A stretch of 64,000 nt of DNA from an uncultured Nitrososphaerota archaeon. GTDB taxonomy: Archaea; Thermoproteota; Nitrososphaeria; Nitrososphaerales; CADDZS01. The stretch spans positions 1,408,001-1,472,000 of the forward strand of contig CAWCYI010000004.1 of NCBI GenBank assembly GCA_963799845.1, written 5' to 3'. Positions 5,431 to 43,152 of the stretch are shown here, one piece after another. The translations under genes and the position numbers were made by a program. Under the pieces are notes generated by a model, which saw nothing but the letters and a program-made list of their open reading frames with translations, was not told where the DNA came from and made no database searches. How positions within the stretch are numbered: position 1 is the first letter of the stretch; each line of letters opens with the position of its first letter.

Positions 5431-6205
5431 TTGCAAGTTAGCGCGACGAAGAGCGTTGGGAGGACTCCAAAGAAATACTTGGAATTGCAAAAGGAGCTCA
5501 GTTCCAATGATCGAAAGGCAAAATTCGTGATGTACCTTTTCTCCGAAGGTCCCAGAGAATACGATTTTCTCCTCAAGATACTTAGCATGGGGCGCGACGT
5601 CTACTGGAGAAATTCAATCATTGAAAAAGCACGACCGTCCAAGGGAGGAAGGGTGCTGGATATTGCCTGCGGAACGGGGCTCGTCTCGTACCAGTTTGCC
5701 TCCCACGGGAATTCGGTTGTAGGAATAGACGTGACAAGAGAGATGCTTACCAGAGCCCTCGCCCTACGAGACGGCAAGAACGCAAAAGACGTGGATCTAA
5801 TCCAGGCAAGAGCTGAAAATCTGCCCCTGAGATCCAACGTCTTTGACTGCGCCACGATCAGCCTCGCTACCAGGAACGTATCAAATGTTTCGTCCACATT
5901 TCAGGAAATGGGAAGATGCGTCAAGACGGGCGGCCCCGTGATCTCGATGGACTTTACCAGACCTAGGGGAAGGGTTTTTGGGGCGTTTTACAATTTCTAC
6001 ACTTTCCGAGTCCTGCCGACTCTTGGGATGGTGATCTCAAGACACTGGAATGGAATCTTCGCCTATCTTGCCGGTTCGATCGAGCGATCCAAGACTCCCG
6101 AACAGCTCATCACAGATCATGGAAGGTGTCGGACTGGAGAACGCTGAAGTCAAGAGGATGACCCACGGAGTGACCGCACTGGTCACGGGATACAAAATCA
6201 CATGA
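5431..6205 (+). CDS. UbiE/MenG-family methyltransferase (apparent frameshift at ~6104-6108)
   Basis: Motifs VLDIACGTG, AENLP and ISLATRNV. The C-terminus 'SQIMEGVGLENAEVKRMTHGVTALVTGYKIT*' continues in the +1 frame after AGCT at 6104. Confidence 0.85.
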
Positions 6206-6224
6206 ATTGGGCCGCCTTGAAAAC

Positions 6225-6956
6225 ATGACATCCCAGAAACCCGCGTGGTACGCACTTGATGGACGTGGAACGTTATCCGACATAGTGAATCTCCTCCATC
6301 CGCCCTACACCCTGTGGCATCTGTCTTACATCGTAATTGGAATCGCGCTATCTCCGGTGATTCATGCTGATCGCTCGATAGCCGTCCTCGTTTCCTATTT
6401 TCTCGGGCTGGGTGTCGGAGCTCATGCACTTGACGAAACTATGGGTAACCCGCTTCAAACAAGATTATCCCGGAACAAACTTTACCTGATCGGATTCTCC
6501 TCGCTTACGGCCGCAGTCTCGATCGGGCTGTATTACGTTTTCACGGTGTCGCTGTTAATCCTCCCAATTATACTGGCTGAAGTTTTTTTCGCGCTGGCGT
6601 ACAACCTGGAAGCTTTTGACAAGAGGTTTCACAACACCTTCGTTTTCGCGCTATCCTGGGGAATCTTACCATTCCTTACGGGATATTTCATCAACTCCCT
6701 TTCTCTCAGCGCTGGAGTGCTAGCCGCTTCGGTTGGCATCGGGTTACTGACATATGTCCAGCGAACTCTCAGCCTTCAAGCAAGATCGATCAGGAGAAAC
6801 ATTCACTCGCCGATACAAAAGTTGAAACTGGAAAACGGGGACGAAATCAGCGTGACATCCAAAGACCTGATCTCGCCGGCAGAAAAATCTCTAAAGGCGC
6901 TGACGCTCATGATATTCGTTTTCGCTATCGCGCTGTTACTTCAAAGGCTCGCTTGA
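6225..6956 (+). CDS. UbiA-like polytopic membrane protein
   Basis: About 7-8 TM helices with LLHPPYTLWHLSY, AHALDET and AYNLE motifs; directly follows the UbiE-like gene. Confidence 0.6.
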   Translation: MTSQKPAWYALDGRGTLSDIVNLLHPPYTLWHLSYIVIGIALSPVIHADRSIAVLVSYFLGLGVGAHALDETMGNPLQTRLSRNKLYLIGFSSLTAAVSIGLYYVFTVSLLILPIILAEVFFALAYNLEAFDKRFHNTFVFALSWGILPFLTGYFINSLSLSAGVLAASVGIGLLTYVQRTLSLQARSIRRNIHSPIQKLKLENGDEISVTSKDLISPAEKSLKALTLMIFVFAIALLLQRLA

Positions 6957-7028
6957 TTTTGCAACATGTTTAATGAATCGGGTTTCTGCGGCCACGAAAT
7001 GTAATTGAACTGTAACGGGGCCGATGAA

Positions 7029-8524
7029 TTAAGGCGGAGGAGGTTCAAGGTCGTCTTCGCCGCGGATCGTTTTTTCATACGACCTTTCAACGTAATATCT
7101 TTCATACAGCGAAATATGCTGGTCTTCTATCTGCATCAGGTACTCGTGGACTCGTTGCGCCGCTTCCCGGCCCGACCCCATGGCTTTTACGACGAGCGTC
7201 TCTCCTGCAGTAACATCGCCAGCGGCGAAGACTCCAGAAAGCGAGGTCCTGTAATGGTCGTCTATCGCAATCGAATTTTTCTTTCCGGTATTGAGTCCAG
7301 CCTGTGTCTGGAGGAAAGAGTTCGGACCTCTTCCAATCGCGAGCAGTACTGCGGAGCACTTTAACGTGTACTCCTGTCCGGGAACGGGCTCGGGACTTCT
7401 CCTGCCCGTCGAATCCGGCTCGCCGAGTTTCATCGTATTCATCAGAACCGATGTAAGTTTTCCCTGGTCACCGAGGTATGCTTTCGGATCGGCAAGAAAC
7501 TTGAACTGGATTCCCTCGTCCCTCGCTTCATCGAGCATTATTGGATCTGCAGGCATCTCATTTTCCGTCCTTCGATAGACGATGGTAACATTTCCCTGCG
7601 CGAGTCTTAGAGTCTGTCCTGGCATCATCAAGCGCAGAGTCTCCTCCTCCAATCACCATCACGTCAGTTCCGAGATCATACATTGGGTTTTTCAGATACG
7701 ATTGGACGCCGTTCACGAAAACATCCTCCAGAAACTTGTAGCCATCGAACACACCTTTCAGGTCGATGCCCGGTGTATCGAGCTGAACCGGATATTTCAG
7801 CTCCCGTCGTTATGAGCACCGCGTCGGCATTATCCGAGAGCAATTGTGATAGAGACAAGTCCTTCCCGATCTTGAGGCCAGTTTTTATCTCGACTCCGCG
7901 TCCCTTGATTCGATCTGTCTCATATCCAAGCACATTCTTCGGTAGGTGATAGTCCGGGATGCCGTACCACGCCGTTCCGCCAGGGGCTACAAGTTCTTCA
8001 TAGATCGTTACCGCATGTCCGTAACGCTGCAAAAGAGAAGCGGCCGCAAGACCCGCTGGTCCCGATCCGACTATAGCAACACGCTTTCCGGTCCTGGCAT
8101 CTGCGTTGGGATCGGGCTGTCGGGATTCCGTTTGCTCCCAATCCGTAACAAATCTCTGCAGCATCCCGATGGAAATCGGCTGACCTTCCCAGTGCATGAC
8201 GCACGCATCTTCGCACAGACCTTGAAGTTGAGGACAACACCTAGCGGTGACTCCGGGCAAATCGTTGGTGTCCGATATCCTGACGAATGCAGTTTTCAGG
8301 TCGCCTCTGGAGACCGCTTCGCACATCCCCCTCACGTCCATCTGAACGGGACACGCATCAATGCAGACGGGAGTGCCGCAGAGAAGACATCTCTTCGCCT
8401 CCTCGATGGCCTGCTCTAAATTGTAGGGCTGCTCGACTTCAGAAAAATCATTTTTCCGTTTACTAGGATCTGACTTTGGAAAAGGGAATGGTCCAACCCT
8501 GTTGGGATTTACCTGGGTGCTCAG
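7029..8524 (-). CDS. GltD/SudA-like NAD(P)-dependent Fe-S flavoprotein oxidoreductase (two apparent frameshifts)
   Basis: Motifs EAKRCLLCGTPVCIDACP, VAIVGSGPAGL, VIGGGDSALD, YRR and VFAAGD are spread over three frames. Shifts are at ~7799 and ~7613. The frame is open upstream to a CTG at 8524. Confidence 0.9.
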
Positions 8525-17094: not shown

Positions 17095-17878
17095 GTGAAC
17101 TCAGAAAAAGATTATCCCGAGCACGTTCGGTGCAATCGTGCAGCGTGGAAGAAGTTTTCAGTAGATTACGCAGAACCTGGCCGGCGGGCTTGGCGGGAAG
17201 AACCACACTGGGGTATCTGGCACATACCAGAAAAAGAAGTCCAGCTGCTGCCTGAAGTTGCCGGACGCGATGTCATTGAATTGGGCTGCGGAACTGCTTA
17301 CATATCTGCTTGGCTCGCGCGACGCGGAGCTGAGAGTCACGGGAATCGACATCTCCGAAGAACAGCTGAAGACTGCGCGATCACTACAAGCCGAGCATCG
17401 TCTCAACTTTCCACTGATCCATGGCAGCGCAGAGCAAGTACCGCTGCCCGATGCTTCCTTTGACCTTGCCATTAGCGAGTACGGCGCAAGCATCTGGTGC
17501 GATCCGTACAGGTGGATTCCGGAAGCGTCACGCCTGCTGCGCCCCGACGGCCAGCTTATCTTCCTGGTCAACGGAACGATTCTCGTACTCTGCATGCCGG
17601 ACGACGAGAGCAAGCCCACTACTCCCGAGCTCCTCAGAACTTACTTTGGCATGCGTCGCTTCGAGTGGTCGGAAGGAGACGAATCGGTCGAGTTTCACCT
17701 TGGCTACGGGGAATGGATCCGTCTCCTGCGAGCGAATGGTTTTGAAATTGAAAATTTGATAGAGCTCAGGCCTCCAGAGGGTGCAACGACCCGCTATCCA
17801 TTTGTGACACTGGAGTGGGCGCGGCGCTGGCCTTCGGAAGAGGTATGGATAGCTCGAAAGCGCGGGCCGCTGAAATGA
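17095..17878 (+). CDS. Class I SAM-dependent methyltransferase (apparent frameshift at ~17332)
   Basis: VIELGCGTAY in the first frame and GIDISEEQL/SFDLAISEYGA in the next. Removing the G of AGCTGA at 17328-17333 restores one frame. Confidence 0.9.
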
Positions 17879-19538: not shown

Positions 19539-20462
19539 ACATCGGATCGATTCCTCGAATAGTACTTACGTCTAGCCCGTTCGACCATTTCATCCTCCCG
19601 TTCCGAGTACGGGATGTAGCCCTGACCGACCTGGATAGAACTGACATTTGCACCGATTACTTCTCTCATGGACTTGTTAAGTTCGAAACCTACATAATGT
19701 CGAAAATTAGCTTTCGCAACGACGGCTGTTGTCCCATTTCCCATGAAGGGATCTGGTACTACATCACCAGGGCGAGTCGAGAAATCGATGCATCGTTGGA
19801 TCAGTTCTTCTGGAAGTTTTGTGCCGTTCTTTACTTCCCCCTTTCTGTACGTTCGATTGATATCCCACACATCCAGAGGGTAGTGATTAATTTTGTTGAA
19901 GTAATAATTTTCAGTCTTTGAGAAAAACAAGACGTGATAATGACTGGTTACAAATTTTCTCTGTGTAAATACGCCAAATTGGTATCTCCAAATTATATGG
20001 TTGATTAGCAATAGCTTCGCGTCTCTTGCGGCATTCAGAATATCAATCAAGTTCGTCCATCCACTGAATATCCAAGCGGTAGATGTTGGTTTCATTATTC
20101 GTGGAAGTACTGCTATCCATTTCTTTGAAAATTCTGCGTAGTCTCCCCTCAGCTTCTTGATATCCACTTCGGACATATCTATCGTCCCGATTATAGATAG
20201 ATTCCTTTCCAGTAAATGAAAGACCGAAGGGCGGATCTGCGATAATACAGTCGATGCTATCACCGGGGAGTGCGTGCATTCCTGAAATACAATCACGATA
20301 TTGAATTTTGTCGACCGTAAGACAAGGCTCAGAAGCATAATATTTCGACATGGCTTGGGTGATGTCCCAATCTTCGGTGGGTTTGAAGTTCAGTGCTGCT
20401 AAATTTGGGATGTATTTATTCTTCCTAGCTTTCTTGAATCTTTGCTCAGGTTCAACTTTCAA
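19535..20462 (-). CDS. Orphan beta-class N4-cytosine/N6-adenine DNA methyltransferase (apparent frameshift at ~20150)
   Basis: The catalytic DPPF motif precedes the SAM-binding DPFMGNGTT motif (beta order), and INHIIWRYQFGV.T..KFVTSHYH is present. Removing one base at AGCT 20151 joins the two ORFs (...GYQEARGDYAEF...). Confidence 0.9.
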
Positions 20463-26680: not shown

Positions 26681-26685
26681 ATCCG

Positions 26686-27126: not shown

Positions 27127-27270
27127 TTTCTAAAATGACTTTTGTTCCTTTAAATGGATTTTATAGCCCTACAGAGTTTTCTCTCGTTGTTTGCTATTTA
27201 TTAACACCGACGGATGAAGCGCTTCAATCCGCAACACAAATCAGGTACGAACACGAACTGGTTGTCAGAT

Positions 27271-28105
27271 ATGGCCACTCCGGTATTTGATCAGATAGCG
27301 GACGTGTACGACGAGACGAGGAGAGAGCTCGGCGAGGCTACGCTGAGGGGGATAGAGGATAAGCTGACAAAGCATGGGTGCAGGTCCATTCTCGAAATAG
27401 GCGTCGGCACCGGACGCATCGCGCTTCCGCTTATCAAAAGTGGCTTCGAGGTTTCTGGCATGGACATCTCACGTCGGATGATGGAGAAGGCCAGAGCCAA
27501 AGGAATGAGGAGTCTCTTCCGAGCTGAAGGGAGTCAAGCTCCGTTCAGGGAGAAAAGTTTTGACGCAGTTCTAATGGCGCATGTCTTCCATCTACTTGAC
27601 GACCCTCAATCAGTAATGCGGGAGGCCGCGAGACTGAGCCGTGTAGGAGTATTCGCGCTAGTAAGAAAGAGAACTGAGGCTCATTCGTGGTCGTTCTACG
27701 GCGGTGATGACTCTGCCGAAAGAATGAGCGATGAAGATACAAGGAAATTCTTCGAAGAAAGAAGAGAGCGCTTCAGGAAGATTTTCAAAAAGTATGGCAA
27801 GGATCCTTCCCAAATCTTTCCAAACTGGAGGAAAGAAAAGGAGGTCCTCGATACCTATCCACCCGACGATCTAAAAATAGTGAGCGATGTAGTCGTGACC
27901 GAGAACATCGAGGACAGGATCGCTCGATTCGAGAAGGGCAGCTGACAGCTCCATACTGCGCATGCCGGTTGAAATGCGAAAAGAGATCGTCGAAGAAATG
28001 CGTACTTACTCTTCGTCACGCTTGGGTCAAGAAGCGAGGATGCAACCCCGACATGAAGTCTACCAGCTAGCATTATGGAACTCAAATAAGTTGCTTGCAT
28101 CCTAA
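27271..28105 (+). CDS. Class I SAM-dependent methyltransferase (apparent frameshift at ~27944)
   Basis: LEIGVGTGR motif. Removing the G in AGCTGA (27940-27945) extends the frame through 'SYSSILRMPVEMRKEI...' to TAA at 28105. Confidence 0.85.
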
Positions 28106-28152
28106 AATTTCAATTCTTATCAAAATTTGCAAGTTTAGGCCAGGGGTATCCC

Positions 28153-30209
28153 CTACATAGCATCGAGTCTCTTTGCAACGAACTCTGAAGTCCTCTTCGA
28201 CATTGACATTATGGTAATCATCGGGTTTGCACCAAGCGTCGTAGGGAAAACTGAAGCATCCGCTATGAACAAGTTTCTCATTCCCAGTAGCTCTCCTTCC
28301 ACGCTTACTGCAGCAAGAGATTCATCAGCGCCCATTCTGCAGGATCCCATGATATGAGCGCTGAAGAGCATGAGTCTATTTGGCGCGATGCCCCTTTTTT
28401 CTACCAAGTCGTTGAACCGATCGAGCTCTTTCTGCGATAGAGAAGTACTTCCCTTTGGAGCATCTACTTCTAGAAGATCGGAGTGCAGAGTCGAGAGACC
28501 CTTTGCCCCAGCCGCAGCCAGTATCCTTCCAGTTTCCTTAATCCCTTGGACCATGTTCCTTCTATCTCTTTCTTCAAGCTCGTAATTTACAATTGCAGAG
28601 CCGTGCTTATCGACACCAACACTTCCGCTACTCCATTCTCTTAGAAGGACAATATTGGCAGTTGAATGATTAAATCGCTCTCGCATGAAATCCTTATGTC
28701 TGCGTCCATCGGGCCAGGGAGCACTTAGTGCGAAGAGTCCGGGATGAGCTGGTGCCGCCTCCATCCAGAACCCGTGACTCGTGCCATTGAGGTTCAGATA
28801 CTTTGTAACAACGACAGTTTGCGGTGGACCGTCCCACGTCCTAACTTCTTGCTCGAAAAGTCCGGACACGGCCGTCGTCGGATGAAGCTTCAGCCTCTTA
28901 CCAATGTTTTTCCCTTTTATTCCCGAGTTCAGGAGAAGGACGGGCGTCTTTACTGAACCGCACGCAAGAACGACAACCTTCGCGCGAATCCGGATGTTGA
29001 TGGTTTTGCCATTACGAGATGTTCTGGCTTCAATTCCCTTCGCCGCTCCTTGTTCCACTACTATCATTTCGACTTTTGTGTCGAAAAGAAATCGTGCTCC
29101 GTTCTTGAATGCCATGGGTAGATAGTTCATGATTGTTGATTGTTTGCAGGAATAGACGCACCCATACGTGCAATACGCGCATCTTTCTCTACAGTCCACG
29201 GCATCCCTCCAGATTCGTTCAAAATCCAGGCCCTCATTGTATCCGAGAGCTTGGCATCCTCTCAACAGTGCTTCGTTGTTGAAGTTCAACTGACTCTCGT
29301 TCAGGTTGACCTTCAAGAGCTTCCAGATCTCTTCGACATTCGAATTGAATTCTTTACCTGTGAGGCCTACGATTCCGAATTCTTGCTCCCAATTTTTCAA
29401 AACATCCGAAGGAGGTCTGATACATGTCATCCAGTTAACGGTCGTTCCTCCTCCAGCGCCTCTCCCAGATAGAAGAACAAATGAGAGATCCCTTGTCGCA
29501 GCAGTCCCATACTCATCGAAGAGCTTACTCATCATAGAAGCTCTCCCTGGTCAAAAGAATCTGCCGTGGCGTACGGACCTGACTCCACAACGAGGACAGC
29601 GAATCCTCTTTTGCTCAGTTCAAATGCAGCCACGCTTCCTCCCGCTCCTGAGCCTACCACGCAAACGTCGCATTCCAGAGTTTGATCTTTCTCGGGTATG
29701 GTCGGATCTATCTTGAGATCTTGCGGGTGGCCGAGGTGCATCCTGGTTTGGGGTCCCGGATATTCTATTTCGCTCCAGTTCGGATTTGATCCTTTTTCAT
29801 CTGCAATCGCGTAGAATAAGAAGCAGACAAGTCTCTTTAGAGCCTGAAAAGCCTGTCTTTTCGATCCAAGTGAGCTGTCTCTCCAGCTTGCAAGATATCT
29901 TGTTCTTTCCTCCCCAACCTTCAACTCGGAGAATTTTGTTGGTCTTCCGGTCAGAACGAGGTTGTAAAATCTGCTGTCTATGATAGAAAGCAGTCTCCGA
30001 AACTGTTCTCTCAGGGCAGGTTCGAGTCTCGTTTCGATCATCTCGGCTAGTGTCTTGTCCAATGCGAGATCCGTAGCGGAGCGCTCGTAGAATGCTTTCG
30101 TCTGTTCCGAGTAAGCTGGTGAAAAATCCTGAGTTACGCTTACCTTAGGTACAATCGTATCGCAGATAGCGGCTATCGTGCCTAGCTCTCGTTCCGTGAG
30201 ATCCATCAA
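28153..30209 (-). CDS. GMC-family oxidoreductase (long-chain fatty alcohol oxidase-like; apparent frameshift at ~29539)
   Basis: VVGSGAGGSV in the 5' ORF; GGGTTVNW, LHP, SAHIMGSCRMG and DASVFPT..GANPM in the 3' ORF. Confidence 0.9.
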
Positions 30210-30316
30210 TCAACCGAAGATTGTATCAGTGCTAAAAGCATGTCTTATTAAAACCAAGGGATCAGCATTGCTGTATTTTGAAGCGCAACAAGATGGAAAT
30301 TAAGAAGCTTTAGATC

Positions 30317-30670: not shown

Positions 30671-30680
30671 GTGCTACTTG

Positions 30681-32640
30681 TCACTCTTTCAAATCAGGAT
30701 CAAGACCATTCTTGATCAATACTTGGCGGTAGCGCGGATCTTTTCTTGCGCGTTCGAATAACGGCGAGTACCTGAAAACCATCGGATTGAAAACGTGTGT
30801 CTCCACGCACTTGAACATTGCATCAAAATATCCATCCGTATCACCTAGAAAGTATTTCATGTTGCCAACAAAGCGGTGGGCAGTAGCTTTGCCTTTGAAT
30901 TTCTGATTTAGTATCGTAATTGTTTCCTCCGCTTTTTTCCTGTCTCCGGTTAACGCCGATAGATATCCGCGCATGACGATCACTATGATATCTTCGGGCC
31001 GCGACCTTTCCATGAATTCAATTTCCTTTTCAGCCGCTTGATAGTCAGCTTTGATCAGATAGTAATCTGCCTTAATTCGGGAAGCTTCAAACGGATCGAT
31101 GAGACGGTTCTTGGTCCAGATGTCCTCCGCCTCCTTCTCCAGACCCATGAACACGTACATATGTCCCAGAAAACGGATCGGCACCGGATCCAGAGGATCA
31201 AGCTCATTAGCAGTTTCAAAGTTCCTGATTGCTTCATTTGGATACCCGTTCGTTGCCTTGATTAATGCAAGCATGGTATACCCATCAGAAGAACTGGGAT
31301 TGAGCTCTATCGCGAGCTTTGCTTCCTTTTCATCCGTGGCGAGATCATCTTCCACCCACGCAATCTTGGAAAGAAGCGAATGAACTTCTGCCAAGTCGGG
31401 ATTGGTGTCAACCGCTCTCTTCGCAGCCGAACGTGCCCCGGCCACCGACTCCTCGTAAGTCAGAAGACTCTTTGCCCCAAGCTCAATGTATGTCGAGCCC
31501 ATGTAGACGTAGGCACGTGTAAATGAAGGATCTAGTTTGACGGCTTCCACAAATAGGGCAAGGGCTTCGCGCAAGGAGCTTTCAGTCTTTTGATAGGTCA
31601 GCTGTCTCAGCTCTGAGAAAGTACGAGTATGCCGTGATATTATCTGTGTCTCTTTCCTGAGAGAAAGGAATTTTTTCATTTGTCACGCTGCTGGGCAGCG
31701 ATTTGACTATGCTGGAAGCGATGTCGCTCTGAACAGCAAATATGTCGTCAAGATCCTTGTCGTATCTGGAGGACCACAAGTGTTCCTCGGTTGCAGCGTC
31801 AATCAACTGTGCGGTGACCCTGATCCTGTTACCAGCTTTTCTCACACTGCCTTCTACAAGAGTTTGTACCCCAAGCTCACTTCCGATTTCAGATGCTTTT
31901 CTATCCTTCTTCTTGTAGTTCATTACCGATGTTCGCGCGATCACCCTCAACCCCTTCACCTGGGACAGGCGATCGATAATTTCTTCGGTCATTCCGTCGG
32001 CAAAATATTCGTCAGAAGGATCGGGACTGATGTTTGTAAAAGGCAGGACAGCGATTCTGTTACCAGATATCGGTTTTTTGCTTTGAAACGAAGTTGCTTG
32101 AACATCCCATGGCAGGATGATTTTGAACACATCAACAACGTATCGAACATTCTTTAGCTCCTTCTCTTCAAGCTTCAAAAATTGGTATGATACCTTGTTT
32201 CTAACTTGATCAAAGACCTGTTCCGAGATACATACTCCCTCTGGCGAAGCAAGCGGCTCTATCCGCGAGGCAATGTTTACAGCGTCACCGAAAATGTCTC
32301 CCTGCTTGTGTACCACATCACCGAGATGGATCCCTATTCTTAGCTTGATTCTCCACTCTTCCCGAGAGGAAGTATTGTAATCTCTCAAAAAAGTCTGAAT
32401 CTCGATCGCGCATTTTACCGCATCCACGGCACTGTCGAATTCGACAAGGAATGAATCACCTATCGTCTTGATTTCTTTCCCACGATGTCTGGATATGATC
32501 GGTCTGAGAAGTCGATTGTGCCTGTCTAATATTTCCAGAGCGAGTGATTCGTTTGACTGAGCCAGAGCGGTGTAGCCGACCATGTCGGTGAACATGATGG
32601 CCGCCAGCCTCCGTTCTTCCCTGCTAGTATCGACTGACAA
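30681..32640 (-). CDS. Class III adenylate cyclase + TolB-like + TPR protein (apparent frameshift at ~31600-31612)
   Basis: Cyclase motifs MFTDMVGYT, KTIGDSF, LRIGIHLGDV and DIFGDAVNIASRIE; IAVLPF..YFADGMTEE TolB-N motif; TPRs in the downstream frame. Confidence 0.9.
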
Positions 32641-32696
32641 GCGAATCTTCTGAATTGAATCCCATTATTACTTAAATTGGTTTGTTGTCTGAATTC

Positions 32697-32846
32697 TTAC
32701 TTTGCATGGCCGTACTTGTGAGGATCACTGTCAAACTTTGTCTTGCAAGCAGCCGAGCAGAAGTAAAATGTCTGTCCTTCATGCTCAGACTTCAGCTTCG
32801 TCTTCTTTTCATCTACCATCATTCCACATATTGGATCTTTCATCAT
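32697..32846 (-). CDS. YHS/TRASH copper metallochaperone
   Basis: MMKDPICGMMVD...YFCSAACK.KFD.DP.KY; divergent from the regulator and copA. Confidence 0.9.
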   Translation of the reverse strand: MMKDPICGMMVDEKKTKLKSEHEGQTFYFCSAACKTKFDSDPHKYGHAK

Positions 32847-32900
32847 AGCTCGGAACGACCTCTTGCGTAGTTCGAGAGGGGAAACTATTTCACATTTTGT

Positions 32901-32916
32901 CTTTACATTTGTAAAG
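32901..32916. promoter_or_regulatory. Palindromic candidate copper-regulator operator CTTTACA-TT-TGTAAAG
   Basis: Perfect 7-bp inverted repeat between the divergent chaperone and regulator genes. A degenerate copy lies at 33580-33595, upstream of copA. Confidence 0.6.
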
Positions 32917-32957
32917 TATTTATCACAGAACCGCACTTATTAGAATGAATCGCCAAA

Positions 32958-33584
32958 TTGAAACTCGATCCGATAGATCTCGTTATTTTGAAGGAACTCA
33001 ACACCGACGGTCGTGCGTCTCTCCGCCAGATCGCAAAGAAATCGTCACTTTCCACTCCAACTGTTTCGAGCAGGTTCGAGAGGATGAAGAAGGCCGGGCT
33101 GATTCAAAAGTTCATTCCGATCTTGAGCCCTGACGCATCAAATGATTCAAGTGTTCTGGCTTTCGTTACCCTTAGCGCGCCATCCTCTTCCATCGAAAGG
33201 ATCACGAAACAGCTAGAGGTCAAGCCCGGGGTGATCGGAGTCTTTGTCACAACCGGAGCCAACAATCTTATGATCAAAGTCAGCGTCCGAAACGCCCAGT
33301 CGTTGCAGCGATTCCTAACAAGCCCAGAATTCAGAAAACTTGGCGTCGAGGTGGCGAGCAGTCAAATTATTACCGAGACGGTGAAGGATGAGCGTCCTCT
33401 ACCGTTCACGGACGAGATTTACATGAAACTCTCCTGCGATCTCTGCAATGGCGAGATAACTTCTAACACACCTTATACGATCAGGGTAGCCTCGTCGAGA
33501 TACTATTTCTGCTGCAAGACATGCAAAGCAACATATCTCCAAAAGCACGGCGACAGAATCAGGTCAATCAACAAAGCGAATTAA
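32958..33584 (+). CDS. copR: Lrp/AsnC HTH + TRASH copper-responsive regulator (CopR/CopT-like)
   Basis: N-terminal Lrp HTH and a C-terminal CDLC...YFCCKTC TRASH domain. Confidence 0.85.
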   Translation: MKLDPIDLVILKELNTDGRASLRQIAKKSSLSTPTVSSRFERMKKAGLIQKFIPILSPDASNDSSVLAFVTLSAPSSSIERITKQLEVKPGVIGVFVTTGANNLMIKVSVRNAQSLQRFLTSPEFRKLGVEVASSQIITETVKDERPLPFTDEIYMKLSCDLCNGEITSNTPYTIRVASSRYYFCCKTCKATYLQKHGDRIRSINKAN

Positions 33585-33638
33585 CGTTTGTAAATGTGAG
33601 CCTTTAACCTCTAAATCCTTCTAATCTTCATTCAGACA

Positions 33639-35726
33639 ATGGCGATCGATCCAGTCTGCGGAATGTATGTCGAGGAATCTCCCGACACACTCCACGCAAC
33701 TGTCAGGAGGACAACATACTATTTTTGCAGCGAGTCCTGCCTGAATGAGTTCACAAGACCAGAGGTGGAGCTGCAGAGCATCAAGCGAAACATCGTCCTC
33801 AGCTTAGCGTTGGGCATCCCGATCCTCGTCCTCTCGTATGTCCCGGTGTCACTCCCATTTCCCCTTGGCTGGCTTCTCCTTGCGCTTGCAACGCCGGTGC
33901 AGTTTATCGCCGGGGCAAGGTTCTACCGCGGGACCTGGGACGCCATCAGGATGCGTTCCTCGAACATGGACGTGTTAATCGCGATTGGAACGTCCACGGC
34001 ATACTTTTATAGCCTCGCCTACGTTCTGTTTCCAAAACAGTTCCTGTACGGCGGACTGTACTTCGACAGTTCCGCGATAATCATTGCTCTAATCTTGATC
34101 GGAAGATTGCTCGAATTCAACGTCCGGGGGAAAGCCACCGACGCAATCCGAAAACTGGCCGAGCTGCAACCAAAGATCGCGATCGTAATTCGAGACGGCA
34201 TGGAAAAAGAAATTCCTATAGAACAGGTCGTCGAGGGAGACATCTTCATCGTAAAGCCGGGCGAAAGAATTGCAACCGATGGCGAAGTTATCGATGGAGA
34301 CTCTTCAGTCGACGAAAAAATGATCACCGGAGAAAGCATCCCCGTTGAGAAAGAGAAGGGGAACGCGGTCATCGGCGGGACTATAAACGGTCAGGGCTCT
34401 CTGAAGGTTAGAGCAACCAAAGTCGGCGCGGATACTACCCTCTCCAAAATCGTGAACGTGGTGCAGGGGGCGCTAACCTCAAAGGGACCTATCGAGAGGC
34501 TGGTTGACACGATTTCAAAGTATTTCGTCCCCATCGTCGTCTTCGTCGCACTGCTGTCTTTCGTTCTCTGGGTCTTCGTCGCTCACAAGCCTGTGAGCTT
34601 TGGTTTCACCACGGCAGTTGCGGTCCTGATCATTGCCTGCCCCTGCGCGCTCGGACTTGCGACTCCGGCCGCAATAGCAGTTGGAGCGGGGAAGGGTGCG
34701 GAGAACGGGATACTGATCAAGGGCGGAGAATATCTTGAGAGAACAGAAAAGATCGACACAGTAGTTTTCGACAAGACAGGTACACTGACCAGAGGCGAAC
34801 CTTCCGTGACTGACATACTCAATCTGAGTTCGGAATCATTTACTGACGATGAGATCTTGAAATTCGCAGCAATCGCGGAGAATCGGTCCGAGCATCCTCT
34901 CGCTTCTGCGATCATGAAGAAGGCAAAAGAAAAGTTCCCGAATCAATCGTTCGACGGAGCAGCGAACTTTGAATCCATTCCGGGCAGGGGAGTAAGGGCA
35001 ACTTACTCTGGCCATGAGATTTTATTTGGAAACACGAAGGTTCTGGAGTCTGAGCAACTTACACCGGCGATTGCAATGAAACTGGATGAACTCCGCGACC
35101 AGGGAAAGACGACCATGATTCTGATGGTAGATGGTTCTGTTGTAGGTTTGATCGCGGCCGCTGACACGATAAAAGAACATTCCAAAGAAGCAATCAGCGC
35201 ACTGCAGAAAATGAAACTCGAAGTGATGATGCTGACCGGCGATAATAAGCAGACCGCGGCTGCAATATCGCATCAGCTCGGGATTATGAGATTCATAGCG
35301 GACGTGCTACCGGAAGATAAGTATGAAGCAATCAAAAAACTACAGAGTGAAGAACATCGCAAGGTCGCAATGGTGGGAGATGGGATAAATGATGCACCCG
35401 CTCTGGCTCAGGCCGATGTCGGGATCGCAATGGGGTCTGGTTCCGACATTGCAATCGAAACTGGCGGGCTGATTTTGATGAAGGACGATCCGAGAGATGT
35501 CGTCGCGGGAATCCAGCTTTCAAGAAAAACCATGAGCAAGATAAAGCAAAACCTGTTCTGGGCATTCGTTTACAACGTCGGGCTGATCCCGGTTGCAGCT
35601 GGGCTGCTGTACATCATCGCTGGAATCCTGCTCAATCCCATCTTCTCGGGGTTTGCGATGGCGATGTCGTCGGTAACTGTAGTAACAAATTCTCTAACAC
35701 TGCGAAGATTCAAACCCAAGTTGTAA
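33639..35726 (+). CDS. copA: Cu(I)-translocating P1B-type ATPase with N-terminal YHS/TRASH domain
   Basis: Motifs DPVCGM..YFCS..C, TGES, CPC, DKTGT, SEHP, GDGINDAP, YN and MAMSS. Confidence 0.97.
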   Translation: MAIDPVCGMYVEESPDTLHATVRRTTYYFCSESCLNEFTRPEVELQSIKRNIVLSLALGIPILVLSYVPVSLPFPLGWLLLALATPVQFIAGARFYRGTWDAIRMRSSNMDVLIAIGTSTAYFYSLAYVLFPKQFLYGGLYFDSSAIIIALILIGRLLEFNVRGKATDAIRKLAELQPKIAIVIRDGMEKEIPIEQVVEGDIFIVKPGERIATDGEVIDGDSSVDEKMITGESIPVEKEKGNAVIGGTINGQGSLKVRATKVGADTTLSKIVNVVQGALTSKGPIERLVDTISKYFVPIVVFVALLSFVLWVFVAHKPVSFGFTTAVAVLIIACPCALGLATPAAIAVGAGKGAENGILIKGGEYLERTEKIDTVVFDKTGTLTRGEPSVTDILNLSSESFTDDEILKFAAIAENRSEHPLASAIMKKAKEKFPNQSFDGAANFESIPGRGVRATYSGHEILFGNTKVLESEQLTPAIAMKLDELRDQGKTTMILMVDGSVVGLIAAADTIKEHSKEAISALQKMKLEVMMLTGDNKQTAAAISHQLGIMRFIADVLPEDKYEAIKKLQSEEHRKVAMVGDGINDAPALAQADVGIAMGSGSDIAIETGGLILMKDDPRDVVAGIQLSRKTMSKIKQNLFWAFVYNVGLIPVAAGLLYIIAGILLNPIFSGFAMAMSSVTVVTNSLTLRRFKPKL

Positions 35727-35855
35727 TTTAGTAGTTTTGATATCCAGAAGGTTTTGGAGGACTGCAAAACCCCTTGAACTCCCTTCGCTAAAGGAAGCAA
35801 GAGAGCGCACGAAAGAGACCGAGTCGAGGATAGTTCGGACAAATAGGAGAAGCGC

Positions 35856-36083
35856 GTGGGTCTCCAGCCTCAAATGATCGCAAAGATTCGACTATACACC
35901 TATGTTGGCTTCCGCGTTCTCGTTGTGGCGTACGCTGTCTTTCTTTTCTCTTGGCTAGAGACAGTCTTTCGCACTCGGCAGTTCTCGATAGATATGGGAA
36001 TGTTGGTCTTTCCTGTCGTGATTGTTGCGTATCTCGCATTCTTCGAGATCTATCGTTTTACTCAAAAACTGACAAACCGATAG
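35856..36083 (+). CDS. Small 2-TM membrane protein
   Basis: Two hydrophobic helices. Confidence 0.5.
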   Translation: MGLQPQMIAKIRLYTYVGFRVLVVAYAVFLFSWLETVFRTRQFSIDMGMLVFPVVIVAYLAFFEIYRFTQKLTNR

Positions 36084-36114
36084 ATTTTATATCCAGAACC
36101 TACATTATATCGGT

Positions 36115-37167
36115 TTGACCGCAATGAACCAAACCGATAGACCGCATCTTTCCAAGACCTCTCCGTGGGATAAGGCCCTACGAGCAGTAGCAATCATCAG
36201 GGCTATTGGGAAGGCTAAACCCACAACGAGTCCGAGACTCACCAAAAAGATTTCGGAGCTTCTAGACGAACTCGCAGCCATTCGTAAAGACGACCCTCGA
36301 ATCATCATCAAACTCACCAAAAAGCTGCGTGTCAAGTATACTTACCATACTAATTCCATCGAGGGCAACACACTCACCGAGTCGGAGACACGGTCTTTCA
36401 TCGAGACTGGCATGACGGTCTCAGGCAAACCACTTCGAGACTTCACCGAAACTAAAAACATTCCAGAAGCTCTTAACATGATCATCGACATGGCGCAAGC
36501 GAACAAGCCACTAAGACTCTCCGATCTCCTAGACCTCCACAAGATCGTCGTCAAAGACACCGAGGAAGCGGAGCCTGGTTATTTCAGGAAAGGTTTTGTC
36601 AGGATAGGCAACAGTCCATACGTTCCACCACCAGTCTACGAGCTCGACAATCTCGTCGATGAAATGCTCACTTACTCCAACAATAACCCCGACAAGCTCA
36701 ACCCCTATGAGCTCGCCTTCAAGACCCATCTGTGGCTCGTATCCATTCACCCCTTTGAAGATGGCAACGGCAGAGTCACGAGACTCGTTGCGGGTCTCAT
36801 CCAACTAAGACACCACATGCCACCAATCATCATCAAGAGAGAACACAGGAGACGCTACTGGTCAGTTCTCAGGGCTACCCAAAAGCAAGAGGGTCTGAAG
36901 CCGTACTACGACTTTATGGCAGAGGAGTATATCGCAACCCTCATCGAATACGTTACAGCTGCGAGACAAACAGGTCCAGAAGACAACTTGGTTCCATTGG
37001 CAGAAGCTGCGAAGAAGTACAAGCTTGACACAGAATACTTGGGTCTTCTAGCGCGGACAGGAGTCATCAAGGGAATGAAGAACGGAGGTCGATGGATGAT
37101 AAGAGTCAAAGACATGGAAGACTATGTGGCTCATCGAAGAAAACCGAAAGCTAGAGAAAGAAAATGA
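36115..37167 (+). CDS. Fic-family AMP transferase with C-terminal HTH
   Basis: Canonical HPFEDGNGRVTR motif, N-terminal autoinhibitory-type TNSIEGN motif and a C-terminal excisionase-like HTH. Confidence 0.92.
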   Translation: MTAMNQTDRPHLSKTSPWDKALRAVAIIRAIGKAKPTTSPRLTKKISELLDELAAIRKDDPRIIIKLTKKLRVKYTYHTNSIEGNTLTESETRSFIETGMTVSGKPLRDFTETKNIPEALNMIIDMAQANKPLRLSDLLDLHKIVVKDTEEAEPGYFRKGFVRIGNSPYVPPPVYELDNLVDEMLTYSNNNPDKLNPYELAFKTHLWLVSIHPFEDGNGRVTRLVAGLIQLRHHMPPIIIKREHRRRYWSVLRATQKQEGLKPYYDFMAEEYIATLIEYVTAARQTGPEDNLVPLAEAAKKYKLDTEYLGLLARTGVIKGMKNGGRWMIRVKDMEDYVAHRRKPKARERK

Positions 37168-37588
37168 GGACATGGCACTTCCCGCTGCAATACGTCTGAA
37201 GCAGAAACACCCCACCAGAAAGCACCAGTCTCTTGGGAAGTACATCAGACACTAGCAATGATGTACCGTGGCCCAAGGTACTTGCGTCAAATAGCAGTGG
37301 GCATCCAGCCTCAATTTTGATGTCTTCGACACGAATAGCACCACCGTCAGTTCGAAATGCCGTAATCGTAATCTTGGCGCGAGGAAAGACCCCCCTAGGC
37401 TCAAAACAAAATAGATACAAATGTGAAGATCGATAAGAACATAAGCCCAGAGCCCAATGCAAAATATGGGATCGATTTTTTTCTGGCTCTCCGCCAATTG
37501 ATCTTCCAATCATCTTCATTGTCTGAGCCTGACAAATTAAATCAGTCCTTGATGATCCAGTAGCTAACTAGGAACTTGCAGTTTCCAT

Positions 37589-38232
37589 CTATTTCCGAAC
37601 AAGAGTCAAACAAAAATGTCCGTCCTTCTTCGTCAGTCGCTTAACGGTACATTTTTTGAATAATCCGACCAACTCGACTTTCAAGAAATGATGATGTGGA
37701 ATGTTCGCCTCCTCGCCCTTGGGACCATATTAGAGTGCCAGGCTCAACTGCAGTAGCGTGCGGGTTTTGGATTTTCTCGGATTTCGACCAGCTGAGGTAC
37801 CTCAACGTAAATGTATCCGCCCTTTCTCGTCACTCTCTCGATCTCGGTAGCGATTTTTCTGATCTTGTCACTGAAAGTATGGTGGAAGACCCTCATAACT
37901 AGGACACCGTCAAAAAAAGAACTAGCGTATGGAAAAGGGATGCCATTCATATCCCAGATCCTTAGTTTTGCACTAAGCCGTTCCTTATGCAATTCTTCTC
38001 TAGTGCGGCTTATCGCCTTTCGTGACCAGTCAAAACCATAAACATCGAATCCCAACTTGGCAAGATAGACCGTGTGCCTGCCTGTACCGCAGCCAAAGTC
38101 GAGTACTCTCGAAGCCCTTCTCCACTTTTTCAGCAGACTTGCTGCTAGGGAAACCACGCCTTGCTCTACCCGTCTGTCTGGATACCAATCGAGCCAAGTG
38201 TCCTTGATAACAGGTCGAGTTCTATGGGGCAT
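37589..38232 (-). CDS. Class I SAM-dependent methyltransferase (two apparent frameshifts)
   Basis: VLDFGCGTGRH motif. The frame continues after AGCT 37790 (VPSWSKSEK..EPGTL) and again after ~37718 (GEEANIPHHHF) to TAG at 37589. Confidence 0.8.
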
Positions 38233-38299
38233 ATTTAGGGATCTACGACCAGATGGACAATTTGAATCAGGATAGGTAACTCTCTAAGTGGTGAACGAT

Positions 38300-38452
38300 A
38301 TGTCTTTCCTTCTTATAATGATCAAGGGCGGCGAGTACCTCGAAAGGAATCAGAAGATTGACACGATTGTCTTTAACAAAGTTTGGGAGACTATCCCACT
38401 AACGTTTAGCTTCTTTCAACCTGCTGTAGTTTCTTTCCTGATACTCGCTTAG
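38300..38452 (+). pseudogene. Short fragment of a second P1B-ATPase phosphorylation region
   Basis: IMIKGGEYLERNQKIDTIVFNK matches copA ILIKGGEYLERTEKIDTVVFDK (34710-34775), with mostly third-position differences. Confidence 0.7.
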
Positions 38453-39097
38453 ACCTTCCATCGAGCAAAGCAGACCTTGTTCACGGATTTCTAGATCGTA
38501 CTGAGATTCAGGTGTTCGAATCATAGAAGAAATTTATCCCTGTTCGTCGGAAAAGTGATGTCGTGCTTTTTCTTCTAACCACTGACGGCTCTATTCGGTC
38601 GTTTCATTGCATGATAACCTCTTTGGAAGCTCTGGATCCATTCAATGTTGGAGTCTTGTTTGCCGAAGAGTTATAGTGATTAGCAATTTCGCAAGTGCCT
38701 TAATACTGAGTAAGGAAACCGAGCTCAGCGATCTTGAAACTCTTGGAACATTATGGTCGTCTTTCAATTCCAAGAATCAGCGAATTATCGAAATACTCCG
38801 AGCTGGAATGCGGTTTAAGACTGGGTAATCTAGTAGCGAAGTTCACACTCTTAAAAGTCCGAAAATTTGTTGTGTTTCGGGAAGGGGTGTAGTCGCTGGC
38901 GAATGGGTCATACCATCTTCAGCGCTCGCTCCTTCCCGCCTCATATTGCTCATGAACTGTCTGAAGTTTCGAGGGAAGCTTTGCTTTGGTCTATCGAATT
39001 TGGGCAATAACTGGGGAAAAATGATTGCACATTTCGCGTTAGAACTCTCCATTAAACGTCAAAGGTTATGACATCGTAACTAAGTAGAAGATGTGTA

Positions 39098-39406
39098 ATG
39101 AGCTCCGTTGAAAATACTTACAGAGAAGTAGCCAAATTTGTTTCACTAGCTCTCTCTGTCACTCCCAATACCAAAACTGAAGGTTATCTTGAAGAAGCTT
39201 GGAAACTAATTGAGACGCTTCCAGATAAGAATAAGCGTGGTTTTCGGTACACGTACCCTGAGATCTACGAGGCGATAACCGTGGGTATAAGGCCGACATT
39301 AATAGAAGCGATCAGGGATGAGCTTTCAGAGTTGACTCTGACTACAAAGGAAGACGTTGAATCCATAGAAAAAGATGTAGAGGAAATTGAAGAAGAGAAG
39401 AAATGA
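39098..39406 (+). CDS. Acidic helical hypothetical protein
   Basis: Clean 102-aa ATG ORF in an otherwise gene-poor stretch. Confidence 0.65.
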   Translation: MSSVENTYREVAKFVSLALSVTPNTKTEGYLEEAWKLIETLPDKNKRGFRYTYPEIYEAITVGIRPTLIEAIRDELSELTLTTKEDVESIEKDVEEIEEEKK

Positions 39407-39958
39407 GTGTGTTGCAGACAACCAGAAACGTGCTAGTTCAATAGCATGTAACACTGATGCCATCGTCATCGGAACCAGAGTTTTTCTAGGGGGTTCAACA
39501 GCGGATCTGGAAGATTATGCGTACGATCCTTGTCCATAAGGGTTAGAAAAATGAAAAGCATGCAAATGATCACAATCGCAGTACTTGGAGCATTCATTCT
39601 GGTTTCTGGCTTGTTGCAGCCATCTCTTCGTCACAAACTATTACATCTCAGACGACGCAGATAACCACAGTGATAAACGTTTACCTTGCTTTCCTCTTTT
39701 AGGGCATCGTGGAACTCTTTGACTAATTGTGTTGCAGAGTTCATTCGAGGCACCCTCAATAAGTAACTGAATTAAGGTTTCTGGTAACCGAAATTTCCAA
39801 TGTTCTTAGGTCTCACCTCAGACGATGGGCGGAATCTGGGTCTCAGGCATGAATTCACGAATCAGATCTTCAATCCTACATGTCGTAAATATCAGATCGA
39901 AGATTTTCAAAACGTTGTTTACAAGGAGAGCTTTGAGTGAAGTGGGTCAGGACATAAG

Positions 39959-40249
39959 ATGGTCAGAAACAAGCTAAAGGAAAATCAAGAAAGAGGGAAG
40001 CTAGGAGAGGAGGATGCTAAAAGGGACCTTGAGTTGATGGGATATGAAGTAATAAGAAAAGATACGTTAAAACGAGGCAGCGATTTCTTGGCAAGGCGTA
40101 CCAGTCCAGTTGATCTAAGATCCGAGATTTTCCCGGTCGAAGTGAAGACGGGCAATTCAAGACTCTCTCAGAATCAGACGGAGTCAAAGCAAAGATATGG
40201 GAGAAGGTACAAGATATTGCGCCCCGACTCTGATTTTTTGGACCAATAA
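39959..40249 (+). CDS. Small PD-(D/E)XK nuclease-fold protein (Hjc/YraN-like)
   Basis: Motif order G..GE....L...GY.V ... GSDF ... VEVKTG..RLS.NQ. Confidence 0.8.
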   Translation: MVRNKLKENQERGKLGEEDAKRDLELMGYEVIRKDTLKRGSDFLARRTSPVDLRSEIFPVEVKTGNSRLSQNQTESKQRYGRRYKILRPDSDFLDQ

Positions 40250-40540
40250 GGACAAAGGATTTCACTTCTAATTTCCTGACTGATGGTCAATTATCTCTTG
40301 AATTACACTTTGGATTCCATTCGTCTCCCTATTTGCTAACGCCCCGCACTTACTTGGGCAACAGAATTTTTCTACTCTTCAAGCCTGAATTTCGGAGCTG
40401 CAATATCAATCCTCAAAGATTTCACCGATATTGAGAGAAATTCGAGAGAATGAGATCGGAGTTTAGCTCTTTTTGAACCCTTTATTGCGGGAGATAATTC
40501 CTTTCATCTCTCAATACTGAAAAGAAGGATTGACAATATC

Positions 40541-43152
40541 TTGGTTCTTCAAGTCTTTAGATCTGGACTTTTCAATACTAGGCACGAAAGGGATCAGACA
40601 GAAAAACTCATTGAATCTCTTCATAGAGATTTTGCTGGGACTAACGATGATTGCCGAATAATTATTGATCCGATGTTTTCAATTCCAATTAAGACTGGCG
40701 TGCAGAATTTCCAACTTGACGCGATCGTCCTAAAAGACAATATGATTGCCATCATTGAATTGAAAGATCACGAGGGAATAATAAGGGCGAACTATTCAAA
40801 AGGAGCAATTTGGACCGTTGACACAGGAAAAGGCCCCTATGAAGTGAAATCATCTAATCCTTACGAGCAGGCAGCGCTCAAACGATTGGGGCTTTGTGTA
40901 TTTCTTGATCAACACTTCTTCGGGGATTCCAATCCCAGTAAGAATCTCGATGACTTAGAAAACTACTATTATGAAGTAACCGACAAAGTAAAACTCAAAG
41001 TGAAGTCTTGGGTAGTCGTAAATGAAAACTCGCAAATTATCGGCGATGGCTCACGCCCTCAAGAGCGGCCCTGGTTCAGACATCTGAAAATTCACGAAGT
41101 AGCGCGAGCTAGCACTCGAAAGATCTTCTTCAAAGTTTCTGACCGACCAGCAATTTCAGGATTTTCTAAAAGAATTACGAGCTGTAAGAGTACCTTGGGA
41201 CAGATGGTTCGCGGGTATTCCATTGGAGGATGCCCCAAAAGAACATCCCATGAGGATACCACTTCTTGACAGTTGGATCTCTAGTGGTGATGCCACACAA
41301 GTTACAGAAGCTCTTTCCTATATTAGCAAGCTTTGGTTGCGACAATACGAAAATGAAATACTGTATCTATGGCACATTAGTAATCCCGATATAAGACAAC
41401 GGTGCCTGAGCATATTGATCTCGTGGAACTCAGAAAAATTGCCTACGATTTTGAGCGAGGCACTTTCAGATAATGAACCAACTATCATATCCCTCGCTTT
41501 GACTCACTTGTCTCAAATCGGTTTTCCAGAAGCCTTTCCCGCCTTGCGTAACATGCTTCGCAATAATCAGGGGCAATTTACGCGGCAAGTGTTGAAGGCG
41601 ATAGCCGCTTCTGGCCATCGATCTTCTTGCGAAGCACTAATGGAGTTTGCAATTCAGAAATTTGAGTCAAAGAACTTCGCTATCTCTGCAGAATATGACG
41701 AGGCCGCGATATCTTGGAAGAGCGGCAGGCAAGATTACTTGAAGAATGGCCGCTACGAGGAAGAAAGGGGTGCTCTAAACGATTTGGAGCATCGCAAGCG
41801 AGATTTCCTTTCACTTTTCAGAAGCGTTTGTGAAGCAATGGGAGAAGCTAAGTGCAGCCATGCGGTCCCCTGGCTTCTTGAGTTTGTTTCTTCGCCACGC
41901 AGGATGGGACTAGACCGGGATGCCTTTCCTGATTTCGGTGAATACAGGTTTGATTCTTGTTATAGTGTCTTTCAAATCGCAGCTGAGGCTATGGGCGAAA
42001 TAGGATCACAGGAAGCATTGCCTACACTGCTTCAAAAACTTGAATCAGTGGGCGAGGACTATCAGGAAATAATCATCAATGCACTTGGAGAAATTGGGGA
42101 CCCAGCTGCATCAACTGAGTTAGCAAAGTATCTCGACCACGTCAAAAATCCGCACATGTATGACAGAACGGTTTACGCTTTGGGTCAGACGGGGGCAAAA
42201 GATGCTTTCGACAAATTGGCGGCCAACTATGTCAAGGATCCCTTGAGCGATAGTGGGCGGTGGACGGCCGAAGCCTTGGTTAAGATCGATGTGAAAAAGT
42301 TTGAAAACACTCTTCTAACTGCATTGCAGTCTGAGGCAAACCAGGAATTTAAGGATGCATTTCTTTTTGCGTTGCTACCTATTGCCACCACAGAGTCTGC
42401 GCAAATCCTTTTTCCCTTACTCAAAGATCCTGTCTTATCGAATCGGGCCGCATGGATTCTTAGTAATCTGTCGAATGATTTGGGCGTTTCCAGTAAAGCC
42501 AAGACACTTACGAAATCTCAAGACTCGATCGAGAAAGCAGCAGCCATTTTCATCCTCAACGATTACTATCTCAAACATCTTAGTGAAATCGAACAGTTCG
42601 AGGGATCTGCTGAAGGAGTTGAAGTTAGGCGTGCCGTGACCAGTCTCTACGAAGTCAGCTCGCTTGACAAGTCGACTTCTCAAATATGCAGGAGATCCTG
42701 ATGAAATTGTCCGATCCATCGTATTCGACAGTTATGAGTTCGGAGGCGGAAAATACCTCGGTGATTTTTATCTCGCCTCTGATTCTGAAGAGGCTCAGAA
42801 TTGTAGGGTCGTGATAAACAGTGAGGGTCTGGCAATAGAACTGAGGAATAAAGTGCTATTTGTAAGGATGACGAGTCTACAACACGTTGTTGTAACTGAA
42901 TCATCCTCCGCAGCGAGTGGTGTTTTCATGCTAGTTGATGGAAGGACCACTCACGATCATTACCTCTTGGTTCCAGATGAACATTGGCATCACGACACCT
43001 CGGAAAGTGAAGCAGCTGAGTTGTTTCTAGAGATATCGTCAATCGCTCACGGCCAAGTAGGCACGCCAAAACTAGATGGAGATGAAATGCGGATTGCAAT
43101 CGAGCTGTGGAACGCGGTTCCTGATGAATTCAAGAATAGCGTGAGAGCTTGA
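40541..43152 (+). CDS. NERD nuclease domain + HEAT-repeat protein, ~870 aa (two apparent frameshifts)
   Basis: NERD motifs (HE, LDAIV, IIELK, NPYEQ) and HEAT/PBS repeats (AAEAMGEIG, ALGEIGD, ALGQTG). The frames join at AGCT 41107 and AGCT 42657 (YEVARLTSRLLKYAGDPDEIVR). Confidence 0.8.

Follow-up and report, generated by a model that had tools for sequence, protein, structure and literature searches.

The window analysed here is a stretch of 64,000 nucleotides (C4:1408001-1472000 of assembly GCA_963799845.1) from an uncultured archaeon of the Nitrososphaerota, in which several protein-coding genes are split by breaks of the reading frame. Very probably, most of these breaks are one-base errors of a long-read consensus sequence, made where the true sequence is AGCT, with N4-methylcytosine (m4C) at that motif as their likely cause. 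In positions 24000-43000 of the window, which were compared with independent reads, the errors of the assembly are confined to AGCT, and the genes that they split are whole in the reads.

Frame breaks and independent reads

The window DNA is present in four public sequencing runs (X1-X4) of one 2024 soil-metagenome study. The k-mer contigs of these runs (run contigs) were compared with positions 24000-43000, the stretch in which 7 of the 12 frame breaks claimed by the initial annotation fall. The X1 contigs are identical to the window over long stretches; between 25990 and 30315, for example, they show no other letter and two gaps. Outside 38349-38932, the run contigs differ from the assembly in eight places, all of them at true AGCT, six being one-base indels and two being two-base substitutions. 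One base is omitted by the run contigs at 27944, 31608, 37794, 38726, and 42656, an A is inserted after 29537, and the substitutions are located at 36635-6 and 39938-9. All eight sites are supported by X1, two of them also by X2 (29537 and 31608, with an additional loose end at 27943), and one by X3 (29537). At 27943, the X2 contig stops, and its loose end goes on without the G. At the 29537 site, the relative G005 likewise has one more base than the assembly, placed at 29538.

The stretch contains 97 true AGCT sites, which take up 3.1% of its positions, giving a probability of about 8e-13 that all eight differences fall on them by chance. About 8% of the AGCT sites in these 19 kb are therefore wrong (8/97), and no error was found away from AGCT, outside the paralogue-confounded region 38349-38932. 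The kinds of error are few and fixed, and they depend on the flanking base: 6 of 29 AGCTA/TAGCT sites are wrong, compared with 2 of the remaining 68. With each of the two substitutions, the reads recover an AGCT that is destroyed in the assembly, which has CAGTCT for CAGCTT and GAGTGAA for GAGCTAA, and the six indel edits merge or lengthen split frames.

The initial annotation had placed AGCT at 11 of its breaks, and the motif is present at each of these coordinates, in the form AG[T]CT at 7611. It had also described an extra G in AGCT[G]A. The reads bear out precisely this signature, at 27944 and 37794 as written and at 31608 and 42656 in the reverse complement. The prediction that the genes are intact and that mapped reads would lack the indels holds for five of the seven read-checked breaks (27944, 29537, 31608, 37794, and 42656), where the run contigs are without the indel and the frames merge, but not for 41107 and 37718, which the run contigs leave unchanged. 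A pseudogene or a programmed frameshift would carry the shift in the DNA of the organism itself, and at the five read-checked AGCT breaks the shift is absent from the reads.

The two breaks that are unchanged in the reads could be real rather than errors. Around 41107, the HEAT frame takes over the coding potential from the NERD frame between about 41000 and 41150, and neither a homologue of the NERD part of the supposed NERD-HEAT fusion in 100 other genomes of the order nor a DNA match in the family was found. At 37718, the window has GGG where a paralogous copy of the segment has GG.

This copy belongs to a 1.9-kb duplicated segment with a methyltransferase gene, which is found in the window at 37504-39413 and again at C4:524392-526225, the two being 88-90% identical. 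The paralogous gene (C4:524649-525188) shares with the gene broken at 37790..37795 its 60-base context, the AGCTGA spelling, and a frame of 179 codons, and a shared spelling with a shared truncation is the expected outcome of an error that is determined by its context. Over 38349-38932, the run contigs carry the spelling of the paralogue, which mimics single-nucleotide polymorphisms and indels. A further irregular region is located at 32448-32612, where many run contigs end or branch with loose ends that differ from one another, and where the word depth triples, to 18.9 compared with about 7. Here the catalytic domain of the cyclase begins, a domain with many paralogues in the genome and in its relatives.

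The five breaks outside 24000-43000 were judged by alignment of the genome under study (G000) to relatives (here G001, G002, and G003) and by frame merging, and all five (6108, 7613, 7798, 17332, and 20150) are backed by relatives, merging, or both, in agreement with the earlier view of these genes as intact. Removing 6108 from the ubiE-like gene gives a frame of 259 codons, which is the length of the G003 frame (259); a further +2 in the alignment at 6216-7 lies beyond the stop codon once 6108 is removed. In the gltD-like gene, the pieces of 207 and 282 codons merge to 497 codons when 7613 and 7798 are removed. The first of these two sites is less clean in G001, with a 3-base gap at 7611-7613. 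One of the two gltD alignments uses a locus of G001 that is flagged as unpublished, and no result depends on it alone. Removing 17332 merges frames of 131 and 237 codons to 269, and removing 20150 merges frames of 284 and 145 codons to 314; for the latter, the alignment to the relative puts the +1 in a CCCC run at 20145, and the placement is ambiguous within 20145-20150.

The junction of the minus-strand frames 1402-2859 and 2864-3886 (window 2864-2904) also contains a CAGACT, at 2895, which may be a further error of the AGCT type or may lie in an ordinary gene junction.

Altogether, AGCT errors account for the gene splits at 10 of the 12 claimed breaks of the window. The sites are listed in Table 1.

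Table 1. Frame breaks and read-contradicted AGCT sites of the window, in order of position; letters in square brackets are the extra bases of the assembly
Site and gene	Position	Strand	Evidence
AGCT with extra base 6108, ubiE-like methyltransferase gene	6104..6108	+	+1 compared with G003 (85% identity)
AG[T]CT (coding strand CAG[A]CT), gltD-like gene	7611..7615	-	+1 at 7613 compared with G002
T[C]AGCT, gltD-like gene	7797..7802	-	Ambiguous gap (+2/-1, 67-69% identity); frame merging supports
AGCT[G]A, class I S-adenosylmethionine (SAM) methyltransferase gene	17328..17333	+	Two relatives: +1 at 17332 or 17333
T[C]AGCT, PF01555 DNA methylase gene (DPPF motif; 19535-20479)	20149..20154	-	Alignment to relative (66%), frame merging
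AGCT[G]A, methyltransferase gene	27940..27945	+	Reads AGCTA; X1 contig without 27944; frame 246 to 299 codons
GAAGCT, GMC oxidoreductase gene	29535..29542	-	Reads GAAAGCT (X1, X2, X3); 465 and 225 to 685 codons
T[C]AGCT, adenylate cyclase-TPR gene	31607..31612	-	Reads TAGCT; X1 and X2 without 31608; 333 and 360 to 660 codons
CAGTCT (assembly)	36633..36638		Reads CAGCTT; X1 contig T>C at 36635, C>T at 36636
GGG run, break away from AGCT (37718)	37716..37723	-	X1 contig covers it unchanged
AGCT[G]A, class I methyltransferase gene	37790..37795	-	Reads AGCTA; X1 without 37794; 179 to 213 codons
AGCT[C]AG	38722..38727		Reads AGCTAG; X1 contig without 38726
GAGTGAA (assembly)	39935..39941		Reads GAGCTAA; X1 contig T>C at 39938, G>T at 39939
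Overlap of NERD and HEAT frames (claimed break 41107)	41103..41269	+	Bridged unchanged by X1 and X2 contigs
T[C]AGCT, HEAT-repeat gene	42655..42660	+	Reads TAGCT; X1 without 42656; 532 and 170 to 682 codons

The genome and its frameshift contexts

The assembly comprises 4.6 Mb in 9 contigs with 47.7% G+C, with an estimated completeness of 86.7% and an estimated contamination of 4.9%. Its contigs reach 2.1 Mb, whereas its relatives are short-contig metagenome-assembled genomes (MAGs) of 110-470 contigs each, suggesting that the assembly was produced from a long-read metagenome, for which nanopore is the probable platform. Its membership in the Nitrososphaerota is supported by the best named matches of one of its proteins, which are Nitrososphaerales archaeon MAGs with 92% and 82% identity, ahead of Thaumarchaeota and Bathyarchaeia, and by a DNA identity of 65-85% to genomes of the same genus and family. 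Pfam searches of the window agree with the earlier gene names, i.e., the ubiE-like gene (Ubie_methyltran) and other class I methyltransferases, the gltD-like oxidoreductase, the PF01555 DNA methylase, the GMC oxidoreductase, the adenylate cyclase with TPR, and the NERD and HEAT proteins; an Rfam scan of the window gave no match. The assembly is large compared with same-genus relatives, which have 1.4-3.3 Mb and are 58-87% complete, and the difference may come from an accessory genome that is missed by short-read MAGs or from extra material in the bin.

The contexts of frameshifts were tabulated genome-wide, as the initial annotation had proposed. The comparison with G003, a relative of the same genus, took in 120 contigs (658,668 bases) and yielded 171 alignments with 454,528 columns at an identity of at least 76%. 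A net frame shift results from 455 gap clusters. In 59 of these, the frame of the relative is open over 120 bases to either side whereas that of G000 is broken, and 45 frameshifts remain when no more than 3 gap columns and a local identity of at least 0.7 are demanded. Of these, 21 are of the AGCT type, compared with a baseline of 7.5% in 10,394 random columns (binomial p 1.5e-12), and 15 show AGCTGA or CAGACT, compared with a baseline of 0.58% (binomial p 7.7e-23), with all 15 belonging to the 26 +1 events. At sites across the genome where the relative has CAGCT, the assembly repeatedly has CAGACT, with four such cases in the comparison with G003. In the reverse control class, with G000 open and the relative broken, 3 of 19 events are of the AGCT type. 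On visual inspection, several of the events away from AGCT look like shortened homopolymers (e.g., CCC to CC and TTTTTTT to TTTTTT, among the 10 non-AGCT -1 events). Since some of the non-AGCT events may be real differences or errors of the relative, the 47% is a floor for the share of AGCT. The claim that almost every frameshift sits at AGCT thus describes the window well, whereas genome-wide it applies to about half of the filtered sample.

Independently of any relative, all contigs were scanned for frame switches by dicodon hidden-Markov segmentation, giving 919 same-strand switches when intervals of 1-300 bases were allowed. Ordinary gene junctions make up many of them, and the expected counts were taken from flanking controls. 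AGCT is the only one of the 16 palindromic 4-mers to be strongly enriched (349 compared with 249.4 expected), and GATC shows no excess (1.02), which would fit a base-caller that handles N6-methyladenine (m6A) but not m4C. The most enriched 6-mer is AGCTGA, with 122 occurrences compared with 53.3 expected, and AGTCTG/CAGACT is found 61 times compared with 32.0 expected. An initial 4-mer test had ranked AGCT first with a modest excess (0.336 compared with 0.264), because real junctions dilute the signal and some of the errors destroy AGCT itself. Taken with the eight read-checked differences and the filtered frameshifts, the concentration on this motif is far beyond chance.

The motif counts of the window are ordinary for the genome. 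Long open frames throughout the genome strongly avoid CGN codons for arginine, and TCGA and GATC are the most frequent palindromic 4-mers despite this avoidance.

A further word at the frame switches is AGTACC/GGTACT, which ranks fourth among the enriched 6-mers by excess (67 compared with 29.6 expected), while other GTAC contexts show no enrichment. Among the clean +1 events in the comparison with G003, it is found only twice, both times as an insertion in G000; in the window it is located, e.g., at 41189, within the NERD/HEAT overlap, and at 17437. We considered whether the word is a by-product of nearby AGCT, but the association is not significant (10.8% compared with 5.9%, p=0.13). AGTACC may be a second scar, left at the GTAC m4C motif that is reported for Nitrososphaerales.

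The initial annotation had also cited two copies of a repeat that differ by the extra G. The first spelling, GAGCTGACG, is located at 45517, beyond the coordinates given for the observation, and the other, GAGCTATG, is found only as its reverse complement, at 32844 and 59340. GAGCTGACG lies within an intergenic, AGCT-packed stretch at 45500-45700, where some 170 bases hold ten AGCT in loose copies of GTTCAAGCTC (Tandem Repeats Finder period 11, score 37), for which there was no Rfam match.

Methylation of AGCT as the probable cause

In the mechanism that we propose, an orphan methylase of the PF01555 type would place m4C at AGCT, as it does in relatives, and a base-caller or polisher that is little trained on AGCT modification would misread the altered signal. 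Most commonly, the assembly has AGCTGA for a true AGCTA (on the opposite strand, TCAGCT for TAGCT), which adds a base and shifts the frame. In rarer forms, CAGCT has become CAGACT, AGCTA has become AGCTCA or AGTGA, or a base beside AGCT is lost.

AGCT methylation is well described for the phylum. According to the part drawn on here of a REBASE survey of complete archaeal genomes, persistent orphan m4C AGCT methylases are found in 8/8 Nitrososphaerales and 14/14 Nitrosopumilales, and the persistent AGCT methylases of the Nitrososphaerota that it covers are all m4C enzymes (PMC10609329). The same part reports GATC m6A for 27/29 Nitrososphaerota and GTAC m4C for 8/8 Nitrososphaerales (PMC10609329). 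AGCT was found to be 82-91% modified in both Thaumarchaeota MAGs that are described in the cited section of a metaepigenomic study based on single-molecule real-time sequencing (PMC8919816), and a review table gives AGCT m4C as the activity of M.Nca01I, M.NspBD3I, and M.TarMY3I (PMC11033074).

The genome itself has 12 PF01555 matches, two of which carry the SPPY motif (C8:12137-12946 and C6:1380695-1381642), a motif typical of N4-cytosine methylases. The second of these has orthologues with 57-72% identity in six families of the order, and the named homologues of the candidate methylases are all from uncultured MAGs. The PF01555 methylase of the window (19535-20479, minus strand), whose gene is itself split by a break of the AGCT type, carries DPPF, which is more typical of N6-adenine methylases. 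We therefore set it aside as the AGCT enzyme; it may instead be the enzyme that methylates GATC in this phylum.

Among the alternatives, the most serious holds that the base-caller or polisher is simply weak at AGCTA-like words and that DNA modification is not involved. We consider this unlikely. The strong dependence on the flanking base speaks for it, as do the substitutions that prevail among the modification errors in print and the fact that AGCT modification in this genome is deduced. A weakness of this kind has to contend with the frame switches, where AGCT stands out alone among the palindromic 4-mers and GATC, the m6A motif of the phylum, shows no excess, and with the choice of motif, AGCT being the one reported as universally m4C-methylated in the phylum (PMC10609329, in the part cited above). 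Literature searches found no description of a general AGCTA weakness of long-read platforms. To our knowledge, none has been reported.

It is considerably less probable that AGCT is modified otherwise than by m4C, either as 5-methylcytosine (m5C) by methylases of the AluI type or, e.g., by phosphorothioation. An archaeal AGCT m5C methylase does exist (M.Mco254ORF415P, listed in a table of PMC11033074), and phosphorothioation is reported for a Thaumarchaeota strain in the cited section of PMC8919816. The m4C assignment of the persistent AGCT methylases in the survey (PMC10609329, same part) argues against such a modification, and so does our search for a C5 methylase of family PF00145, which found none in G000 but did find matches in control genomes, the absence being unproven in a genome that is 86.7% complete. 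Very improbable indeed is that the indels are real, i.e., that they result from motif-targeted mutation or from decaying pseudogenes in the assembled strain. The two unchanged breaks and the size of the genome, which at 4.6 Mb is large for a genus whose fragmentary members have 1.4-3.3 Mb, could be taken to favour it. It is contradicted by the reads, in which the indels are absent at five AGCT breaks in up to three runs, on contigs that are otherwise identical for up to 4.3 kb, by corrected frames that equal those of relatives in length, and by the paralogue, which has the same spelling and truncation in an identical local context.

Several observations weigh against consensus errors at m4C-modified AGCT and should be set beside this evidence. 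Runs X1-X4 come from a single study and may include the source sample, and their library type is not on record. At 41107, the run contigs leave the break unchanged although AGCTA sits there. In print, C>T and G>A substitutions prevail among modification errors, and those seen here are mostly insertions. In the comparison with G003, 24 of the 45 frameshifts that pass the filters do not belong to the AGCT type, and at the relative's own AGCT sites the indel rate is 8.7 per 1000 compared with 4.9 overall, which ranks tenth behind AT-rich words, in a test that is blurred by the identity of 80-85% and by intergenic indels. An AGCTA deficit and an AGCTGA surplus would be expected over the genome, yet the counts are barely distorted (observed/expected 0.90 and 1.03); we rejected k-mer distortion as a genome-wide test, the effect being too small. 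On the side of the enzymes, NCBIfam and PDB sequence searches with the two SPPY methylases give generic names only, and the link of SPPY to N4-cytosine methylation is drawn from general knowledge. Finally, AGCT in this genome is likely to be methylated, probably as m4C, but this we infer from the type II-like four-base palindrome, the taxon, the gene content, and the nanopore precedent.

Significance and comparison with known systems

Genes that are broken at AGCT in this window should be treated as intact. The biology is little changed by this result, as the genes are whole and the AGCT methylation of the phylum is in print; its practical value lies in annotation and in the quality control of MAGs, for this genome and for similar long-read soil MAGs. 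By rough extrapolation, a few hundred genes may be split in the same way genome-wide. Such splits probably lower the completeness estimate (86.7%), and they would be mistaken for pseudogenes or gene fission. The simplicity of the error signature makes screening feasible, and reads of the soil study already correct it at the read-checked sites.

It is possible, though we put it somewhat short of an even chance, that m4C at AGCT generally leaves a specific scar that is readable in an assembly (AGCTA to AGCTGA, CAGCT to CAGACT). In that case, finished long-read assemblies would allow methylation motifs to be deduced without raw signal, and public long-read MAGs of Nitrososphaerota would hold hundreds of false pseudogenes each, with lowered completeness scores.

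This kind of artefact and the AGCT m4C methylation of the phylum are both already known. The gene-breaking insertions AGCTA to AGCTGA and CAGCT to CAGACT in a Nitrososphaerales long-read MAG were not found in print: full-text literature searches turned up no account of insertion errors specific to AGCT in assemblies of Nitrososphaerota, and the main text of the Nanomotif preprint does not contain "AGCT", while its supplements may list such motifs.

The errors resemble the familiar homopolymer indels of long-read assemblies in being one-base indels that split genes, but they are located outside single-base runs, except for 29537, where AAA abuts AGCT. With the HG11 and HG19 m4C AGCT methylases described in the cited part of the survey (PMC10609329), the present genome has the phylum and the motif in common, and its SPPY-type PF01555 methylases, one of them with orthologues across the order, are a further likeness; HG11 and HG19 are AGCT enzymes, whereas the two SPPY methylases are candidates, neither being assigned to HG11 or HG19.

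The closest precedent is the Hammerhead study, which, in the portion considered here, describes modification-induced errors of nanopore R10.4.1 sequencing that survive polishing and whose motifs match methylases (PMC11610603). The errors seen here are alike in their confinement to a short motif, in their survival of consensus and polishing, and in their removal by independent accurate reads. The same portion of that study deals mainly with C>T and G>A substitutions at m5C and m6A motifs in cultured bacteria (PMC11610603), whereas the present case is a gene-breaking +1 insertion, AGCTA to AGCTGA, at a presumed m4C motif in an uncultured soil archaeon.

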